Shown in pieces: positions 2,701-62,017 of a stretch of 64,000 nt of DNA. The notes below the pieces were generated by a model. It was not told the DNA's origin and ran no database searches. It was given only the letters and a program-made list of their open reading frames with translations. Source of the DNA: Eledone cirrhosa (lineage: Eukaryota); assembly GCA_964016885.1 (NCBI GenBank), contig OZ024762.1, forward strand, positions 13,516,001-13,580,000, written 5' to 3'. The translations under genes were made by a program, and so were the position numbers. Positions within the stretch are counted from its first letter, which is position 1. Each line of letters begins with the position of its first letter.

Positions 2701-4220
<1,520 letters not shown>

Positions 4221-4226
4221 TATAGA

Positions 4227-4281
4227 TGAGATTCTACAGGACTAGAACTGTTTCATTCTTTAGAAATCATCAGGAATCTCA
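4227..4281 (-). ncRNA. type I hammerhead ribozyme (antisense copy)
   Basis: Reverse complement reads tgagattc-CTGATGA...GAAAcag...ctgTA-gaatctca, with a perfect 8-bp helix I. Confidence 0.82.
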
Positions 4282-4334
4282 GGGATTCCTGATGATTTCT
4301 AAAGAATGAAACAGTTCTAGTCCTGTAGAATCTC
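4282..4334 (+). ncRNA. type I hammerhead ribozyme
   Basis: gggattc-CTGATGA-t ttc taaa gaa t-GAA-Acag ttctagtc ctgT-A/gaatctc; all core nucleotides present, predicted cleavage after GUA (A4327). Confidence 0.8.
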
Positions 4335-4429
4335 ATCTATATTAAAACCTTTATACTCTGCAATGTATTGATTACCTTACTTACTGTGGTTACCTCCAAT
4401 TCAACCCGGAATAACGTATATTATATATA

Positions 4430-6569: not shown

Positions 6570-6700
6570 GGTGATGTGTTATGTCCTTGAGCAAGATACT
6601 TTATTTCATGTTGCTCTTTTTGCCAGCAGTTGCGACTGTTAGATAGTATCAACAGTGGAAAGACCAATGGAAACGTTGTTTCCTTGGTCCGATTTGACGA
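6570..6700 (+). mobile_element. CORE-type SINE, partial
   Basis: 'tgtccttgagcaagatactttatt' CORE motif plus tail shared with 44365-44564. Confidence 0.75.
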
Positions 6701-6734
6701 ATTCTACGCCACTCGGTATGTGAATTTTGATCGA

Positions 6735-12144: not shown

Positions 12145-12366
12145 GGGCGGTGGATTGGCAATATCGGTAGGGAGTCGGACACCATGCTTTGAAGCATAGA
12201 GTTACGTCCCTTTATGATCTGAGTTCAAATCCCGCCGAGGTTAACTTTGCCTTTCATCCTTAAGGGGTCGATAAAATAAAGTACCAGTCACACACTGGGG
12301 TCGATTTAATCGATCTTCCCTTCCCCCAAAATTGCTGGCCTTGTGCCTATATAAGAAATGATTATT
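12145..12366 (+). mobile_element. tRNA-derived SINE with Meta-like domain, full length
   Basis: Box A 'tggcaatatcgg', box B 'gagttcaaatcc', central 'gcctttcatccttaaggggtcgataaaataaagtaccag', (ATT) tail; more than 10 copies in the window. Confidence 0.88.
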
Positions 12367-12552
12367 ATTCTTTTTAATTTTTCTATTTCTAGTTTTCGTA
12401 GTCTATTTGCAGCATCTGAGTTCTGTGTTCGATCCCTTCGAGTGTTCACTAGTTATTGAAAACTGTCTGGGATGTTGGGGAATCAATAAAAATGAACCCT
12501 TTTGATACGAAGTCGATTGAAACCGCTTCTGGTTCTACATTACAAATTCGTT

Positions 12553-12590
<38 letters not shown>

Positions 12591-12594
<4 letters not shown>

Positions 12595-12757
12595 AACGAG
12601 TAGGACCCCGACGGCAGAGCTCAAGCCGTTTCGACGGCTAAACGGCTTGAGATCAGCCGTCGGGGTCCTACTCGTTCCTATTACCCACTCTACTACCCTA
12701 AGTATTGAGTACTTTGGCGCGTTATGGTCCACCTGGTTCCTTACCACATTTCCTTCG

Positions 12758-12759
<2 letters not shown>
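12591..12759 (+). mobile_element. Penelope-like non-autonomous element, family C (fold-back, 3' half of HHR)
   Basis: Inverted arms 12591-12631/12640-12680; family reads GAAAcggc-ttgagctca-gccgTC/ggggtcc; tail 'gtattgagtac'; flanked by (TA)n. Confidence 0.7.
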
Positions 12760-12792
<33 letters not shown>

Positions 12793-12832
12793 CAACGTAA
12801 TGTTCTGGTGATGATGATGCTGATGATGATAA

Positions 12833-13025
12833 TAATAGTTGTTTCTACTTTTGTCACGAGGCCAGCAAATACCCCAGTGCATTGCTGGTACTTTATTTTA
12901 TCGACCCCGTAAGGATGAAAGGCAAAGTTAACCTCGGCGGGATTTGAACTCAGAATGGCAAGGGCCGTAACTCTTTGCGTCAAAGAATGGCGTCCGACCC
13001 TCTACCGATTCTGCCAATCCTCGCT
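12833..13025 (-). mobile_element. MetaSINE-like SINE
   Basis: Reverse complement matches 12145-12366. Confidence 0.88.
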
Positions 13026-14479: not shown

Positions 14480-14648
14480 TGGTTTCTTGTATAGGCACAA
14501 GCCAGTGATTTTGGGGGAGGGGAAAGTCGATTAAATCGACTCCAGTGCGTGACTGGTACTTTATTTTATCGACCCCGTGAAGATGAAAGGCAAAGTTAAC
14601 CTCGGCGAAATTTGAAATCAGATCATAAAGGGCCGTAAATCTTTGCGT
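14480..14648 (-). mobile_element. MetaSINE-like SINE, 5' truncated
   Basis: Reverse complement matches family consensus. Confidence 0.85.
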
Positions 14649-17649: not shown

Positions 17650-18115
17650 GCATACATATATATATTTATATATATTTATATATATATTTATATATACATA
17701 TATATATTTATATATATATACACACACATATATATACATAGAGAGAGAGAGAGAGAGTAAAATTATACTTATACGTAGGTAATAAAATAAGCGAGAAAAT
17801 CTCGATCAGTTAAGGTTATCGGAGCAACTAGTAGAACACAACGCCCTCTAGGTGCTTTAAAATATATACACAAAAGAAAGGGAGATAATACTAATATAAT
17901 TAGTTGATCAACATTTTCAGACATTCCAACCAATACATATTGGGGAAGATTTAGATTTTAAAAGAAATATCTCGCTCTGTTCTGGTTTACTTATGATTCA
18001 ACAATGTTCTATTCGTGACCAACTCGTACTGACAGCCCATCAGTACCAGTAATACACTGATATAATTGCTGACCTTGTGCCGAAAGTAGAAACAATTATA
18101 TATATATGTATGTTT

Positions 18116-18328
18116 AATGATTTCTACTATAGGCACAAGGCCAGTAATTAGGGGAGGAGGGGAAAGTCGATTAAATCGACCCCAGTAAATTACTGGTACT
18201 TTATTTTATCGATCCCGGTTAAGGATGAAAGGCAAATGTTAACTTCGGCCGGATTTGAAACTCAGATCATAAAGGGGCGTAACTCTATGCTGCAAAGCAT
18301 GGCGCCCGACCCTCTACCGATACTGCCA
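18116..18328 (-). mobile_element. MetaSINE-like SINE (tail-to-tail with a + fragment at 18042-18097)
   Basis: Reverse complement matches family consensus. Confidence 0.85.
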
Positions 18329-21585: not shown

Positions 21586-21776
21586 GGAGTTGTGAATTGG
21601 CAGTATCGGTAGAGGGTCGGACGCCATGCTTTCCAGCATAGTTACGTCCCTTTACGATCTGAGTTCAAATCCCGCCGAGGTTAACTTTGCCTTCCATCCT
21701 TACGGGGTCGACAAAATAAAGTACCAGTAATGCACTGGGTAATTGCTGGCCTTGTGCCTAAAGTAGAAACAATTAT
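21586..21776 (+). mobile_element. MetaSINE-like SINE
   Basis: Matches family consensus. Confidence 0.88.
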
Positions 21777-22790
21777 TTTACTGTAGTTGAGTTTACTCAA
21801 GAAAAATCGACGGTAAAATTCATATTTATTAACAGCTTAGAAGATTTTGGTTTAAATGTTTCAGCTTGACAAAAACATTGGATTTTGAGCTTAGCCGAGG
21901 TTTAATAATATTTGAAACACTGTAATGTTTGTGATTGGTATAAATGATGTTAGGGCGATACAGATAATACAACAAAGATGACAACGACGTCAGCGACAAC
22001 AACAACAATATCAACAATATCAATTGAAACGATGACAAGAAGAATAAGAACAAAATAAACTACAGCAACAATACTGACTACATAATGACTACAATAACGC
22101 TGACAACAACAACAACAACAACAACAACCACATTGGCAGCACAGCACGGAAATATCAACAAAGACGGTGATGACATCAACAAAGGACAATGACAATAACA
22201 TCAACAATAATAAGAAAACCTAACATCACCAGTGAACCTCTTCCAACAACAATAACAAGAACTACCTAGAAAATATGAATCCATACCGCACCTAGAATTA
22301 ATATGAACTAGCTACCCTCATTACCTCGCCATCGCAGCCACTCACCTCCATCTTAACACTTTAACCAATAACAACAATAGTAACAACAACAGCAACAACA
22401 TAAACAACAACAACAATATAAACAACAACAACAATAGCATCACTAATGGCACCACCAACAATAATAAAAACAATATACCTCCTAACAAATAACAATAACA
22501 ACACCAACAACAGCACCAACAATAACAGCACTAATAACAACACCAACAACAACACCAACAACACTAATAATAACAGCACGAATAACAACACCAACAACAG
22601 CAACAATAACACTAATAACAACAACACCAATAACAACACCAACAACTATAACATCAACAATAACAACAACAACAACAACAATATATTGATTAACCTCAAT
22701 CAACTTAACGCATTTTAAAGTCAAATGTTCCAGAATATTTGACAACAGATCCCACATCAATTAAGATAATGGATGATATGTATGTAGTCA

Positions 22791-22947: not shown

Positions 22948-23088
22948 ATAGAAGTAGTAACACAAGTTAGTTCACCATACCGAGAACAAATATGGTGAAC
23001 TAACTGTTGTGTTTCTACTTCTACCAAACTCGTCCCATGGACTGAGTGCTTTACCACTACGGATATTACCTTCCAGTGGTCTAACCCC
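22948..23088 (+). mobile_element. fold-back element with a family A-like tail (putative PLE remnant)
   Basis: ~33-bp inverted arms (tagaagtag..gttagttcaccata / tatggtgaactaac..ctacttcta); tail 'ctgagtgctttaccactacggatattaccttcc..aacccc'. Confidence 0.5.
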
Positions 23089-24984: not shown

Positions 24985-25173
24985 TGGTGGTGGATTGGCA
25001 GTATCGGTAGAGGGTCGGACGCCATGCTTTCCAGCATAGTTACGTCCCTTTACGATCTGAGTTCAAATCCCGCCGAGGTTGACTTTGCCTTTCATCCTTA
25101 CGGGGTCGGTAAAATAAAGTACCAGTAATACACTGGGGTAATTGCTGGCCTTGTGCCAATAGTAGAAACAATT
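24985..25173 (+). mobile_element. MetaSINE-like SINE
   Basis: Matches family consensus. Confidence 0.88.
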
Positions 25174-25738
25174 ATATATATTTATATATATACAATGTAT
25201 ATATATATATATAGTGTGTATATATATGTGCATATATATATATATATATATTGTATATATTAATGTATACACAGGCAGACACACGTATACATAGTTTCAT
25301 TGCATTCTGGGATAAGATTGAATGGTAGTTCCAGTAAAAGTTTAGAACGGAAATAAGGAAGAAGTAAAGATCATTCTGGAACAAAAACATAAAATGGCGG
25401 AGACTGTATGATAGAAATCATTTTACAGTTTACACATTTGGAACTAATATAGTTTTATTGTGTGTTCTGTGTCTGGTGTGTGTGGTGTGTGTGTGTGGTG
25501 TGTGTGTGTGTATGGAACTAATGTCGTCTTGTGTGCGATGTGTGTGTATGTACCTTATGTGTGTGTGTGTGTGTGTATACCTTGGTTGTGAGTGTGTGTA
25601 TACCTTGGTTGTGTGTGTGTGTGTGTGTTTATATATATATGTGTATATATATATACAGGTGTGTGTGTGTGTGTGTATATATATATACATACACGTGTGT
25701 GTGTATATATATATATATACATACACATATACACACGG

Positions 25739-28395: not shown

Positions 28396-28750
28396 GGCGG
28401 CGACGAATTGGCAGATTCCTTAGAATGACTGATATAATACCTTGCTGTATTTGTTCTGCCTCTCTGCTCTCTGAGGTCAAATCCCGCCGAGGTCAATTTG
28501 GCGTCTTTACCTTTGCGTGGTTGATGAAAAAAGTACCAGTCAAATACTAGGGTCGATTCTTCCTCTCTCTCGGTTAGGCAGTATCGATAGGGGGTCGGAC
28601 GCCATGCTTTGCAGTAAAGAGTTACGGCCATTTATGGTCTGAGTTCAAATCCAGCCAAGGTTAACTTTGCCTTTCATCCTACGGGGTCGATAAAATAAAG
28701 TACCAGTAATACACTGGCATAATTGCTGGTCTTGTGCCAAAAGTAGAAAC
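28396..28750 (+). mobile_element. two tandem MetaSINE-like SINEs (older 28396-28560, younger 28571-28750)
   Basis: Both match family consensus. Confidence 0.82.
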
Positions 28751-28876
28751 TAGTATATATGATTGTTTCTAGTATATATAATGTGTGTGAGTGTGTCATT
28801 ATACATGTTTGTGCTTGCTAAATTTATTTTGTCTGTCTTTCCATATACATACATAAGTGTGCATGCATGTGAGTGT

Positions 28877-31398: not shown

Positions 31399-31601
31399 GG
31401 CGGTGGATTGGCAGTATCGGTAGAGGGTCATACGCCATGCTTTGACGCATAGAGTTACGACCCTTTCCCTTCTGAGTTCAAATCCCGCCGAGGTCAACTT
31501 TGCCTTTCATCCTTACGGGGGTCGATAAGGTCGATAAAATAAAGTACCAGTAATGCACTGGGGTAATTGCTGGCCTTGTGCCTAACGTAGAAACAATTAT
31601 T
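31399..31601 (+). mobile_element. MetaSINE-like SINE
   Basis: Matches family consensus, with an internal duplication of 'ggtcgataa'. Confidence 0.88.
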
Positions 31602-31783
31602 ATTACAGTTGTTGGTATTAGTGTTGTTGGTGTTGTTGTTGTTGGTGGTGGCAGAGGCAGTGTTATTGGTATTGCGTTGCTGCTGCTGCTGCTGCTGTTG
31701 GTGTTGGTGGTGTTGGTCATGCTGGTATTGTTATTGGTGCTAGTGTTGCTGGAAATGGTATTGATGTTGTATCTCTTTTCTTA

Positions 31784-36967: not shown

Positions 36968-37068
36968 GGAACGATCGACTTTCGTCAAATCGGACCGAGG
37001 GAACAATGTTTCCGTTGGTCTTTCCAATTGCTAATACTATCTATCGGTCGCAACTCCAGGTAGAAGGA

Positions 37069-38905: not shown

Positions 38906-38936
<31 letters not shown>

Positions 38937-38938
<2 letters not shown>

Positions 38939-39201
38939 ATTGTTTCTACTTTTGGCACAAGGCCAGCAAATATCCCAGTGCATTACTGGTACTTTATTTA
39001 TCGACCCCGTAAGGATGAAAGGCAAAGTTAACCTCGGCGGGATTTGAACTCAGATCATAAAGAGGGATATATATATAACATTATATATATATATATATAT
39101 ATATATATAACATTATATATATATATATATATATATCGATAAAATAAAGTACCAGTAATGTACTGGGTAAGTGCTGGCCTTGTGCCAAAAATAGAAACAA
39201 T

Positions 39202-39257
<56 letters not shown>

Positions 39258-39330
39258 GTTTCTATTTTAGGCACAAGGCCAGCACTTACCCAGTACATTA
39301 CTGGTACTTTATTTTATCGATCCCGTAAGA
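38937..39330. mobile_element. MetaSINE-like fragments: 38937-39066(-), 39135-39202(+), 39253-39330(-)
   Basis: All match the 3' half of the family consensus. Confidence 0.85.
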
Positions 39331-39339
39331 TATATCGAC

Positions 39340-39550
39340 AGTCGTTCGACTTTCGTCAAATCGGACCGAGGAAACAATGTTCCCATTAGTCTTTCCAATT
39401 GCTAATACTATCTATCGGTCGCAACTCCAGGTAGAAGGAGCAACGTGAAATAAAGTGTCTTGCTCAAGGACATAACGCATCGCCCGGTCCGGGAATCGAA
39501 CTCAACTTCACGAGTGCGAATCCAGTTCTCTAACCACTCAACTACGTGCC

Positions 39551-40362: not shown

Positions 40363-40691
40363 TGGGATAACAAGTTATCTTTATAGGTAATCCAGTTAGA
40401 GGTTGTGAGTACTCTGCGTCGTGGATAGTTTTAACGTACGGCTTTGTTTGACTCAACAAGATGCTTCCATAGTTATGCAGCGAGTTCTCGGTAATTTCTA
40501 TGCAGGTTATACTTGGAGTAATAATAGTTAAAGAATGAAGAGTAAGATGGTTGGCTGTACAATAAGGGGCTTTATTTAAAGTACTGACAATTGTTTCGTT
40601 GATCAGGTGAGTCTAGAGTTCGGTAATCGCTTGAAGTTGCGTAACTCGATCTCCAATACATTATTTACCTCTGGTCAACACATCAGAATAC
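40363..40691 (-). mobile_element. Penelope-like element, family B, with HHR at 40581-40691
   Basis: Reverse complement gtatt-CTGATGT-gttgaccag...ctgatcaac-GAAAcaattgTC/agtac, then AATAAA and a ~200-nt tail nearly identical to 56345-56568. Confidence 0.75.
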
Positions 40692-44013: not shown

Positions 44014-44178
44014 ATATATATGTGTGTAAGTATCTGTGTATGTGTGTTTGTGTGCGCTCCTTTTCTTTGAACAGAATCAAGTGCACATTCCCTTAAGAAT
44101 GATTACTTTCTCCACAACGAGGTTGACTTGTAGATATTGATAAATCCTTTTGTACTTTCCTTTTATTACAATAATTAT

Positions 44179-44560
44179 TGGTAGAATCGGTAGAGCGCCG
44201 GACAACATGCTTTGAGGCCTTTTAGTTACATTCCTTGACCTTCTGACTTCAAATCTGATCGAGATTAGCATTGCCTTTCATCCGTCCCGGGGTCGAAAAA
44301 ATAAAGTACCTGTCGCACACTGGAGTCGATTTAATCGACTTTCCCCCTCAACCCCCAAATTGTTGGCTGAATGGTTAGAGAATTGGATTCGCAATCGTGA
44401 GATTGTGAGTTCGATTCCTGGACCGGGTAATGCGTTATGTCCTTGAGCAAGACACTTTATTACACGTTGCTCCTTCTACCTGGAGTTACGACCGATAGAT
44501 AGTAGTAGAAATTGAAAAGACCAATGGAAATATTATTTCTTCAGTCCGATTTGCCGAAAG

Positions 44561-44564
<4 letters not shown>
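44179..44564 (+). mobile_element. MetaSINE-like SINE (44179-44361) directly followed by a CORE-type SINE (44365-44564)
   Basis: Matches both family consensuses. Confidence 0.85.
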
Positions 44565-44599
<35 letters not shown>

Positions 44600-44601
<2 letters not shown>

Positions 44602-44690
44602 CGAAGGAAATGTGGTAAGGAACCAGGTGGAGTCCAGAATTAGCCGTCGAAACGGCTTGAGCTCAGCCGTCGGGGTCTTACTTGTTCCTA
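44600..44690. mobile_element. family C element with inversion
   Basis: Tail on - strand (44600-44631) joined to HHR 3' half on + strand 'agccgtcGAAAcggcttgagctcagccgTCggggtc'. Confidence 0.72.
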
Positions 44691-46121
44691 TATATATATA
44701 TATAATGAAAAACTAGAAATTAGAAGTTAGGATTATCCATCATCAGTTGTCTGTTAGACATCATAGGTATTTCTTCGCGTTAGAGACAAGATACCTCATC
44801 CTAGGGCGATTCAATAACTAAAATAAGTTATTGGGATATATATATACACACACACACATACACACACACACACACACAACCATACACACATAGAAAGTAC
44901 TAAACTAAACCAGAAACAGTGGTCGTATTGATCCACTAAGACGCAAAACGCTCGGAGTGATTGCTCCAGTATTGCCGGGATGCCAAAACAACTGCAAAAA
45001 CGAAAAAAAAAACAAAAAACAGTTCGGTTAGAGATTAAAAGAATAAAAGAACGAGAGAATAGGAATAGCAAAATAGGAATCAATGTCCATTAGAATTGTG
45101 AATGAGATCAGAGGAATGAAGGAGATAATTCAACGGTGAAGACAAACGTTTTTATTCTCAACAGATATCCATTTTGTTGCTATGTGAAAATTTACGTTTG
45201 ATAACTTTGATCTAGCGGGGTTTTTTATCTTTATTTTTGAGAGGTTGGGGTGGGTTGGCGGTGTATTATTTCTGTCATTCGTTCGTTTTTTGTTTTTTTT
45301 TTCTCTCTCTCTCTTTCTTTCGTTGTATATTTCGTTCTTTCTTTCGTTTTCTTTTTCTTTCTTGATTTATTTGTTTGTTTCTTTATTTTTTTTTCTACTT
45401 TTCCTTCAATTATTATTATTTTTTTATTGTCTTGTTTTCTTTTTTCTTGTTTCCTTTTCTTTTCTTACTAAATTCCTTAAACTTTGTCTCTGCTCATGAA
45501 AATATACACACACACACACATACACACACATACACACACACACATACACACATATATATATATACATATATACATAGACATACATACACGTATATACACA
45601 CATTTACATACATACATAAATATACACACATACATAGACATACATACACATATATACACATATACATACATATACGTACATACACATATACACACATACA
45701 TATACGTACATACACATATACACACATACATATACATACATATACATACATACACATATATACATATACATACATATACATACATATACATACATACAAG
45801 CAGACAGAAATATTCATACACCTACTTATACTTGTATGTATGTCTTTATGTAGTCGTGGGTGTGTGGGTGTAATTGTATATATATATAGATATGTGTGTG
45901 TGTATATGTGAGTGTATATATATATATGTGTGTATGTGTGAGATAGAGAGAGAATAAGAGACTAATGCTGCATTTAACGTGTGTGTATGAGAGAGAGGTA
46001 GAGAGAGATGTGCTGCATTTAACATAAGATATGTATTATATGCAACACGGAATATTGTAAATGTCAAATACGTTCGAATTTATATTATAGCTAGTGAAAA
46101 AATATGTTATATATATATATA

Positions 46122-46437
46122 CATTAATCAGTATACACTGAGGATGAAAAACTCAAAGCTGTATGGGAGCATCCCAAAAGTCAACTCAAAAGTGACACAG
46201 AGGAGACTGAGGTTAGCTGGACATGCTCACCGACATCCAGAGTTGACATTGCACTCAGTGCTCCTTTGGGAGCCCCTAAACGGACACACTAGAAGAAGAA
46301 GACCAAGGTTAACGTATGTTGATGCCCTAAGGACAGACACTGGTCTGTTGGAGCCGCAGGACATGGCAGCGATAATGAGGGACAGAGACCGCTGGAGAGA
46401 ACTCGTCCATGGATCTCGGGAATTTTACCCGCCTTAG
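46122..46437 (+). mobile_element. RTE-clade LINE 3' end
   Basis: Translates NSKLYGSIPKVNSKVTQRRLRLAGHAHRHPE..VLLWEP..RRRRPRLTYVDAL..DRDRWRELV, a typical RTE C-terminus. Confidence 0.88.
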
Positions 46438-46445
46438 ATATATAT

Positions 46446-46765
46446 AGGGCGAGCAAAATTCCCGAGATCCATGGACGAGTTCTCTCCAGCGGTCTCTATC
46501 CCTCATTATCGCTGCCATGTCCTGCGTCTCCAACAGACCAGTGTCTGTCTTTAGGGCATCAACATACGTTAACCTTGGTCTTCCTTTTCCAGTGTGTTCA
46601 GTGTGTCCATAAAGGCCGCCGCAGGAGCACTGAGTGCAGTGTCAACTCTGGATGTCGGTGAGCATGTCCAGCTAACCTCAGTCTCCTCTGTGTCACTTTT
46701 GAGCTGACTTTTGGGAGGCTCCCATACAGCTCTGAGCTTTTCATTCTCAGTGTATACTGATTAAT
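46446..46765 (-). mobile_element. RTE-clade LINE 3' end, inverted copy
   Basis: Reverse complement of 46122-46437 with scattered substitutions and indels. Confidence 0.88.
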
Positions 46766-46771
46766 GATACA

Positions 46772-56157: not shown

Positions 56158-56567
56158 AAAATCCGGAAAGAATGAAGAGTAACATGGTTGGCTGTACAAT
56201 AAGGGGCTTTATTTAAAGTACTGACAATTGTTTCGTTGATCAGGTGAGTCTAGACGTCGCTAATAAATAATGTATTGGAGATCGAATGACGCAACTTCAA
56301 GCGATTAGCGAACGGTAGATTCACCTGATCAACGAAACAATTGTCAGTACTTTAAATAAAGCCCCTTATTGTACAGCCAACCATGTTACTCTTCATTCTT
56401 TCACTATTATTACTCCAAGTATAACCTGCATAGAAATTACCGCGAACTCGCTGCATAACTATGGAAGCAACTTGTTGAGTCAAACAAAGCCGTACGTTAA
56501 AACTATCCACGACGCAGAGTACTCACAACCTCTAACTCGATTACCTATAACGATAACTTGTTATCCC

Positions 56568-58829: not shown

Positions 58830-58867
58830 GTATAATATATATATATATATAAAAACAAAGAATGTGG

Positions 58868-58937
58868 GAAAAGAGTCAGGACACCGACGGCTGAGCTCCA
58901 GCCGTTTCGACAACCGTCAGGGTCCTGACTCTTTTCA
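58868..58937. mobile_element. family C variant, fold-back
   Basis: 'gaaaagagtcaggacaccgacggctgagctccagccgtttcgac..ccgtcagggtcctgactcttttc'. Confidence 0.65.
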
Positions 58938-58941
58938 TATA

Positions 58942-58975
<34 letters not shown>

Positions 58976-58981
<6 letters not shown>

Positions 58982-59168
58982 GAAGAGCTTCTACAGGACT
59001 AGAACTGTTTCATTCGTGAGAAATCACCAGGAAGCTCCTGATGATTTCTCACGAATGAAACAGTTCTAGTCCTGTAGAAGCTCTTCTAAATTAAAACTTT
59101 TATACTCTGCTACGTATTGAGTACCTTAATTACTGTGGTTACCTCCGAGTCAACCCGGAATAACTTAT

Positions 59169-59172
<4 letters not shown>
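58976..59172 (+). mobile_element. family A element, copy 2
   Basis: Fold-back with HHR; + core intact (CTGATGA 59038-59044), - core mutated (CTGGTGA). Confidence 0.8.
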
Positions 59173-59217
<45 letters not shown>

Positions 59218-59226
<9 letters not shown>

Positions 59227-59412
59227 GAAGAGCTTCTACAGGACTAGAACTGTTTCATTCTTGAGAAATCATCAGGAAGCTCCCAATGATTTCTCACGAA
59301 TGAAACAGTTCTAGTCCTCTAGAAGCTCTTCTAAATTAAAACTTTTATAGTCTGCTACGTATTGAGTACCTTAATACTGTGGTTACCTCCGATTCAACCC
59401 GGAATAACTTAT

Positions 59413-59413
<1 letters not shown>
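59218..59413 (+). mobile_element. family A element, copy 3
   Basis: Tandem duplicate of copy 2; + core mutated, - core intact. Confidence 0.8.
59230..59283 (-). ncRNA. type I hammerhead ribozyme
   Basis: Reverse complement gagcttc-CTGATGA-tttctcaagaat-GAAAcagttctagtcctgTA-gaagctc; 7-bp perfect helix I. Confidence 0.82.
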
Positions 59414-59451
<38 letters not shown>

Positions 59452-61684: not shown

Positions 61685-61838
61685 GTGAAGGCTGAGTGGT
61701 TAGAGCATTTGTTTGACAATCATGAGGTTGTGAGTTCCATTCCCGAGCAGGACACTTCATTTCGCCTGGTGTTGAGACCGATAGATAGTATTAGCAATTG
61801 GAAAGACCAATGGAAACATTGCTTCCTCGGTCCAATTT
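61685..61838 (+). mobile_element. CORE-family SINE, internally deleted
   Basis: tRNA head 'gagtggttagagc..gagttccattccc' plus family tail. Confidence 0.78.
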
Positions 61839-62017
61839 GTTGGCTTTCTGTGGCTCGGGCTTCAGTAACTTCTCCCGAGACTTCTATAAACTGGTGAGAT
61901 AAAATATAACACACATATATATCTATCTATCTATCTAAATATATATATATATATATATATATACATGCAAGCAAGAAAAAGTTGTTTGGTGAAATTAAAC
62001 CAATCTATAGTAAGATT

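Follow-up and report, generated by a model that had tools for sequence, protein, structure and literature searches.

Penelope-like elements (PLEs) that bear an endonuclease, namely Penelope/Poseidon, Neptune and Hydra, carry a type I hammerhead near their 3' end. Their described insertion layout is an inverted pLTR plus a tail, that is, a head-to-head, 5'-truncated inverted copy with 30-40 nt of extra sequence at one end only. Partial direct tandems, AT-rich or microsatellite targets and insertion next to earlier copies complete the picture. The origin of the head-to-head pLTRs and one-sided tails was listed as open by Craig et al. 2021. In the accessible part of PMC11167929, anole PLE protein in purified form cleaves AT-rich DNA on both strands and extends both, and it reverse transcribes mainly uncleaved RNA from two internal start sites whose spacing equals the tail. 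Recently active Penelope-like families are described in O. vulgaris, as far as the accessible text of PMC13282606 goes. The minimal and dimeric type I hammerheads of PLEs (Cervera and de la Pena 2014, PMC4209133) combine a CUGANGA/GAAA core, a GUH site and a short helix II with a self-complementary helix III region and a conserved G-C at 10.1/11.1; they occur as opposite-strand pairs, and their families show compensatory changes. Two further groups are relevant: Naiads, which share a (TA)n bias with the family studied here but have no canonical hammerheads, and metazoan non-LTR retrozymes.

The window, a stretch of 64,000 nt from Eledone cirrhosa, is AT-rich, microsatellite-laden DNA of animal type and holds three copies of a compact hammerhead repeat that we call family A (Table 1). 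Copies 2 and 3 are decaying members of a very abundant 195-base repeat, for which a Penelope-like retrotransposon is the likely origin. In every family A copy, two type I hammerhead arms of 57-59 bp meet head to head as a palindrome, a layout overlooked by the initial annotation of this DNA. All three are flanked by (TA)n on both sides, and in all three a tail of about 75 nt follows the right arm only. The arms are identical over 59 nt in copy 1 (100%), and agree at 96% of 57 nt in copy 2 and 91% of 57 nt in copy 3. The centre of the palindrome is 8 nt shorter in copies 2 and 3 than in copy 1, and copy 2 has a predicted fold of -92 kcal/mol (z -20).

Table 1. Features of the hammerhead repeats and other dispersed repeats, in window positions
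Feature	Position	Strand	Details
Copy 1, family A	4220-4419	+	arms of 59 bp, perfect; centre of 5 nt; tail at 4343-4419; (TA)n context
Copy 1, hammerhead motifs	4220-4419		both complete, A-U at 2.4/1.4
Copy 2, family A	58976-59168		
Copy 2, short (left) arm	58976-59037	-	type I hammerhead, helix I 7-8 bp, C-G at 2.4/1.4; core A6G (59027); GUA site 58992; (TA)n starts ~15 nt beyond site
Copy 2, long (right) arm, hammerhead part	59038-59092	+	core intact, helix I 2 bp because of the inversion junction, GUA site 59076
Copy 2, tail	59093-59168	+	~75 nt, on long arm only
(TA)n tract separating copies 2 and 3	59172-59220		
Copy 3, family A	59221-59412		
Copy 3, short arm	59221-59282	-	sole complete hammerhead motif of the tandem, site 59237, buried in palindrome
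Copy 3, long arm, hammerhead part	59283-59337	+	broken: U4C, G5A, G16.2C; 2-bp helix I
Copy 3, tail, then (TA)n	59338-59412	+	
Family B copy	58852-58936	-	40 nt upstream of copy 2, same microsatellite cluster; short inverted arm plus long arm, tail shortened
Family B copy	12590-12760	+	layout of palindrome plus tail; helix III palindromic; lacks first core box, with the 5' limit inside helix II
Family B copy	44600-44691		two head-to-head arms without template overlap
SINE-like family, pieces	12146-13020, 14480-14646, 18042-18328, 21589-21789, 24986-25175, 28470-28760, 31399-31614, 38933-39331, 44177-44346		
Second dispersed repeat family	6570-6701, 36972-37068, 39343-39540, 44368-44565, 61765-61839		

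The resemblance to endonuclease-bearing PLEs extends to most of the features by which their insertions are recognized. The head-to-head, 5'-truncated inverted copy and the one-ended tail are present in three of three family A copies, and each arm is essentially the hammerhead, which places the motif within the terminal repeat. The target is AT-rich or microsatellite DNA in all ten copies of family A and a related family B, and two recurrent 3' ends, about 70-80 nt apart, are found in both families; partial direct tandems and insertion next to an earlier copy also recur. Arguing against filing family A with PLEs, its tail of 70-80 nt is about twice as long as the 30-40 nt described, and a U.U at 10.1/11.1 departs from the PLE consensus. 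Family A further differs from these elements in lacking an ORF and in having both arms cut within about 60 nt of the first of the two start sites proposed below. No PLE ORF is evident by eye among the window's 209 stop-to-stop frames of at least 100 aa, two repeat-derived frames scanned against Pfam gave no match, and no frame with RT and GIY-YIG, as an autonomous PLE would have, lies in or beside the family A copies. An ORF starting at the hammerhead, as in PAc, was considered and rejected, as both ATGs of the arm run into a stop within 5 codons. Exact motif scans found no loci in metagenome contigs, viral contigs or prokaryote genomes, and the supplement of PMC8557442 contains no family A or B motif, although line breaks could hide one. 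A literature search, with most subscription journals and Repbase/Dfam outside its reach, returned no description of family A or of PLE twin priming.

Read outward from the centre, each arm consists of helix I, CUGAUGA, a U.U pair and a 3-bp helix II with a 4-nt loop, followed by GAAA, a 4-bp helix III with an 8-nt loop, and GUA. Our hammerhead calls come from a descriptor scan for the consensus core and helices. Complete type I hammerheads (core C3-A9, G12-A14, A15.1-U16.1, H17 and three helices) are found in three of the six arms: both arms of copy 1 and the left arm of copy 3. In all six, position 10.1/11.1 is U.U instead of a paired N10.1-N11.1 (usually G-C); the accessible text of PMC3088659 presents U.U as a natural variant and the mismatch best tolerated there. 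None of the 31 Rfam matches at E<=10 for the locus 58960-59430 is a hammerhead, and the 150 matches listed out of 578 for the window are only generic hairpin or miRNA matches below gathering scores; we took such matches, at the locus as in the window, as chance. With the PLE minimal hammerheads family A shares the core, the GUH site, the short helix II, the opposite-strand pairs and compensatory changes within the family. Its helix III region is likewise self-complementary, with a predicted self-pairing of -12.8 kcal/mol as a dimer, as in PLE hammerheads. It differs from them in U10.1.U11.1 in place of G-C, and in a 4-bp helix III whose 8-nt, partly palindromic loop could allow folding as a monomer.

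The initial annotation had described loop 2 as freely varying and stem III as nearly invariant, and both observations hold: loop II is TAAA in two arms, TCAC in three and TCAA in one, and helix III is intact in five of six. It had also described the core as intact only on the plus strand in copy 2 and only on the minus strand in copy 3. This is correct for the core letters, given A6G on the minus strand of copy 2 and the three changes on the plus strand of copy 3, but it does not make copy 2 (+) a complete hammerhead. We rejected that arm as a complete ribozyme because it has only 2 contiguous bp of helix I. The plus arm of copy 3 has the same 2 bp; in both, helix I is cut short because the palindrome centre removed its 5' strand.

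The change from A-U to C-G in helix I, also reported in the initial annotation, is confirmed. The pair N2.4/N1.4 is A-U in copy 1 (4277/4231) and C-G in copy 2 (59034/58988) and copy 3 (59279/59233), and in all three copies it lies in the left arm, the minus-strand hammerhead. A mirror image generated by the palindrome was rejected as its source, since both strands of helix I lie within one arm. In the window, covariation is confined to one of 14 pairs and to one evolutionary event between two subfamilies. As 472 of 500 shuffles reached the covariation seen, it has no significance in the window's six arms. Of the five arm substitutions that separate the subfamilies, two make up the helix I pair, two fall in loop II and one lies where helix I ends. 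In a post-hoc simulation, five random substitutions produced any compensatory pair with P ~0.03, and one with nothing else broken with P ~0.002. The double change is genuine yet belongs to an already described kind; since compensatory changes in PLE hammerhead families were published in 2014 (PMC4209133), the covariation claim adds little.

A broader view of the family comes from public reads. Four of the 23 listed runs were aligned to one arm plus tail (4281-4419) at 80% identity or more. Run X1 yielded 6903 contigs, X4 279 contigs and X21 5677 raw reads; run X12 (share 0.07) gave 0 contigs on the arm and tail. Of the words sampled from the window, the run organism contains only a fraction of 0.33-0.35; it may be a relative. 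The X4 depth peaks were left out of the evidence. Across the core, X1 reaches a summed depth of about 2 million, versus 6-28 for eight listed contigs, which suggests a number of family A arms of order 10^4-10^5, in rough terms only as a depth sum is no copy number. The reads reveal thousands of relatives with a conserved core and a hypervariable loop II, in aggregate and unphased, and with conservation inflated by an alignment threshold that favours conserved reads. Among the variants listed for X1, loop II positions 4301-4303 vary in 15-52% of depth and 4300 in 3.5%, and four core or helix III positions vary in 0.07-0.8%. The corresponding figures among those listed for X21 are 18-49% for loop II versus 5-6% for the core and helix III. 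Aligned across the genome, family A would also offer a deep covariation data set for a hammerhead with U10.1.U11.1.

The reads also bear on helix I. The change U>G at N1.4 is frequent in the family, with 545 of 2128 reads in X21, and clipped ends among those listed point to two further matched types, GAC/GUC in X1 and GGC/GCC in X4 and X21, again unphased. The clipped letters behind 4330 are GTC.. in X1 and GCC.. in X4 and X21, and those before 4286 are ..GGACT in X1, ..GGGCT in X4 and ..CGGC in X21; they are consensus letters with an agreement of 0.4-0.7, and the register in X1 and X4 was assumed with a one-letter shift. This matters for an explanation of the double change that dispenses with selection, in which the 5' strand of helix I, standing at the junction, was rewritten from the 3' strand by templated insertion or template switching. 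Indeed, all three copies have the 5' strand at the palindrome centre, N1.1-N1.7 recur in that centre on the plus strand, and the 5-nt centre of copy 1 resembles a duplicate of the adjoining letters. We nonetheless consider such rewriting unlikely: the clipped ends agree run by run, as further matched pairs in many copies would (at the agreement and assumed register just given), and the G at N1.4 is widespread in the family. Selection on hammerhead structure in the source elements is likely, and such selection has been described before for PLE hammerheads. The initial annotation's proposal of selection on ribozyme structure in the source lineage is supported, mainly by the family-wide reads.

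Upstream of 4284, the commonest sequence (857 reads, X21) is a T-run followed by GATACCCA. By eye, it could pair with an A-rich stretch past helix I, forming an internal loop 1 and a distal stem, and this arrangement could be nearer to a canonical type I hammerhead.

Joints within the reads describe how arms are connected across the family. Nine opposite-strand joints are listed, clustering at 4285-4292 (the start of helix I) and 4304-4306 (just past loop II), and six of the nine are common to X1 and X21, among them 4286/4289, which matches copies 2 and 3; fold-back chimeras formed in the libraries could imitate such inverted joints. Two 3' ends join (TA)n, behind 4348 (347 reads) and behind 4414 (455 reads), and the listed reads that run past the tail enter (TA)n. 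Four joints lead from 4342-4347 back to 4284 with 14-19 additional letters in between; the result is a direct tandem with a hammerhead unit of ~77-78 nt, like the partial tandems of PLEs. In one X4 contig the sequence returns to 4294 after 4394. Among the 15 of 17 joints listed, none connects the end of the tail with the start. As a separate observation, the 5' limits of the arms cluster at predicted loops.

The junction and flanks of copies 2 and 3 are the same, and the two sequences differ at 8 of 197 columns, a pattern compatible with duplication of one insertion between its (TA)n tracts. A misjoin during assembly, linking two alleles across these tracts, is improbable. The duplicated unit does start and stop in microsatellite, and a 200-N gap exists elsewhere in the assembly, but the eight differing columns are inconsistent with a plain duplication. 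A difference of ~4% would be high for alleles. Five changes are private to single arms of copies 2 and 3, none common to both copies; three fall in the core, one in helix III and one in loop II. Disruptive changes make up four of these five and none of the five that separate the subfamilies (Fisher p 0.048, post hoc). The signal of selection comes from the source elements; copies 2 and 3 themselves are in decay.

The initial annotation had compared the two direct copies, set ~242 bp apart, with the HHR-to-HHR layout from which retrozymes yield monomer or circular RNAs. The spacing is 245 nt, and neither strand has two complete hammerheads: only the minus-strand arm of copy 3 is complete among the four, which leaves none of two on the plus strand and one of two on the minus strand. 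Metazoan non-LTR retrozymes, as presented in the accessible parts of PMC7229834 and bioRxiv 10.64898/2026.07.22.740005, resemble the tandem in being non-coding and low in GC, in bearing type I hammerheads and in their proposed origin from PLEs, and the 245-nt period lies within their usual repeats of 150-450 bp (PMC7229834). The tandem differs from them in that its units are palindromes split by (TA)n. Could it nevertheless be a working retrozyme, with cleavage from GUA to GUA freeing a 245-nt monomer that circularises? Both minus-strand GUA sites and helix I 3' strands are intact, the core of copy 3 could in principle serve both sites as a dimer, and direct hammerhead tandems do exist elsewhere in family A. 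Their unit of ~78 nt is, however, shorter, falling below the usual range and inside the 51-972 bp of the bioRxiv study (accessible part), and the full-unit head-to-tail joint is missing from the reads among the joints listed. Counter to this reading as well, the same study takes complete motifs in two consecutive units as its criterion, about 50 of the 245 nt are microsatellite, and damage after insertion strikes the core. Forcing the one complete hammerhead fold carries a predicted penalty of 60 kcal/mol against the hairpin in the tandem, versus 3.4 for a single arm plus tail, and the site of copy 2 is predicted to lie inside a 57-bp helix. We judge a functional retrozyme here very unlikely; a transcript through a copy is predicted to form one long hairpin, and the tandem is predicted to yield no circular RNA. 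For genome scans, this is a caution that two hammerhead motifs ~245 nt apart, each within a palindrome, are not equivalent to a retrozyme.

Family B, represented by seven pieces at 5.1, 12.6, 14.4, 27.1, 44.6, 56.0 and 58.9 kb, follows a comparable plan. Its pieces contain the second half of the hammerhead with a palindromic helix III, and the first core box is missing in all. The short and long 3' ends are fixed at 20 and 100 nt beyond the cleavage triplet, and a tail block is common to families A and B (5 of 5000 shuffles as good). Flanking (TA)n, no more than 15 nt away, is present on both sides in eight of the ten A and B copies and on at least one side in all ten, versus 20% of background positions. 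The copy at 44.6 kb consists of 35 nt of tail end, an 8-nt filler and a 52-nt short arm. Three family B short arms, at 12641, 27140 and 44640, share a single 5' stopping point in helix II, which suggests either a fixed end of the template or a stop site.

Long inverted repeats, high copy number and TA context would also suit a TA-targeting fold-back or MITE-type DNA transposon with a hammerhead-like motif in its inverted repeats by chance, and DNA transposons that target TA microsatellites are reported (PMC4486113). We find this extremely unlikely. The one-sided tail lies outside the inverted repeat, junctions and arm lengths are variable, and single-arm and direct-tandem forms are present; the conserved core and free loop II suit an RNA fold.

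We think it probable that the family A copies are minimal insertions made by a PLE reverse transcriptase/GIY-YIG protein, in which both cut target strands were primed, at two start sites, on one uncleaved RNA. The source RNA would have carried, in its pLTR, a hammerhead under purifying selection, which would have produced the compensatory pairs in helix I. The PLE protein would cut AT-rich DNA on both strands, and one target end would be primed at site 1 and the other at site 2, respectively 15-21 nt and ~90 nt past the point of cleavage. The tail of copy 2 is likely the stretch between the two start sites, an interpretation that follows the accessible part of PMC11167929. Both cDNAs would halt in or just before the hammerhead and be joined by microhomology, producing the palindrome. 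At the tandem, one insertion would then have been duplicated locally between its (TA)n flanks, with the two copies decaying neutrally since, and a read-through transcript would fold into a hairpin of ~57 bp, without self-cleavage. The copies span the GUA site; therefore, the template was uncleaved or re-ligated. In L1 twin priming, two primings on two target ends give an inverted 5' segment with a microhomology joint, and the two segments do not overlap. Family A would resemble this in two-end priming and differ in that usually the same stretch is copied, yielding a palindrome, and in the two fixed start sites.

Alternatively, the elements could have the same PLE origin and the palindrome could have arisen by self-priming or fold-back on one template, possibly antisense, instead of from two target-primed cDNAs. 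This was proposed for rotifer PLEs in PMC3846280, and the junctions, with 2-nt microhomology and short loops, are compatible with it. Loop II is identical in both arms of copies 1 and 2 despite its hypervariability, an identity equally expected from one RNA copied twice. Arguing against fold-back, it is the tailless arm that contains the centre in copies 2 and 3 and in the 12.6-kb family B copy, so that fold-back of a sense-templated cDNA could not have added the tail. The arms of the 44.6-kb copy do not overlap, and therefore fold-back copying cannot make it, although this copy could alternatively be a later deletion of a full palindrome. Weighing these points, we regard fold-back as possible but doubtful. 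Family A is very abundant and very short, with two fixed 3' ends and variable inverted junctions, and a genome-wide alignment could therefore decide between two-site, both-strand priming and self-priming for PLE inverted repeats.

A more tentative extension of two-strand priming is that the source is a non-autonomous PLE parasite of ~150 nt, made up of 78 nt of hammerhead-only pLTR and 70 nt of tail and present at some 10^4-10^5 copies, whose insertions might form a genome-scale record of priming on two strands from different start sites of one RNA. If true, head-to-head pLTRs and one-sided tails would be explained without antisense self-priming.

Other repeats in the window were noted in passing. 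At 46122-46766, an inverted repeat of ~650 nt (90% identity) sets two 3' ends tail-to-tail around a short (TA)n; they resemble those of an RTE-type LINE ORF, with no Pfam match for the frame. On the same inverted plan, two 64-nt SINE 3' ends stand tail-to-tail around (TA)n at 39135-39321. A 304-nt repeat is present at 40364-40667 and 56167-56567 in opposite orientation (96% identity), with a 98-nt internal duplication in the 56-kb copy; its 141-aa frame has no Pfam match. An abundant SINE-like family of ~190 nt, with a dozen or more pieces at 70-95% identity, may resemble octopus SINEs. In a second dispersed family, the 39.3- and 44.4-kb copies seem to bear a tRNA-like head. Finally, a nested hairpin at 22949-23023, with an outer stem of 17 bp and an inner stem of 15 bp, adjoins (TA)n and then a unique stretch, and is possibly another small palindrome-plus-tail element.
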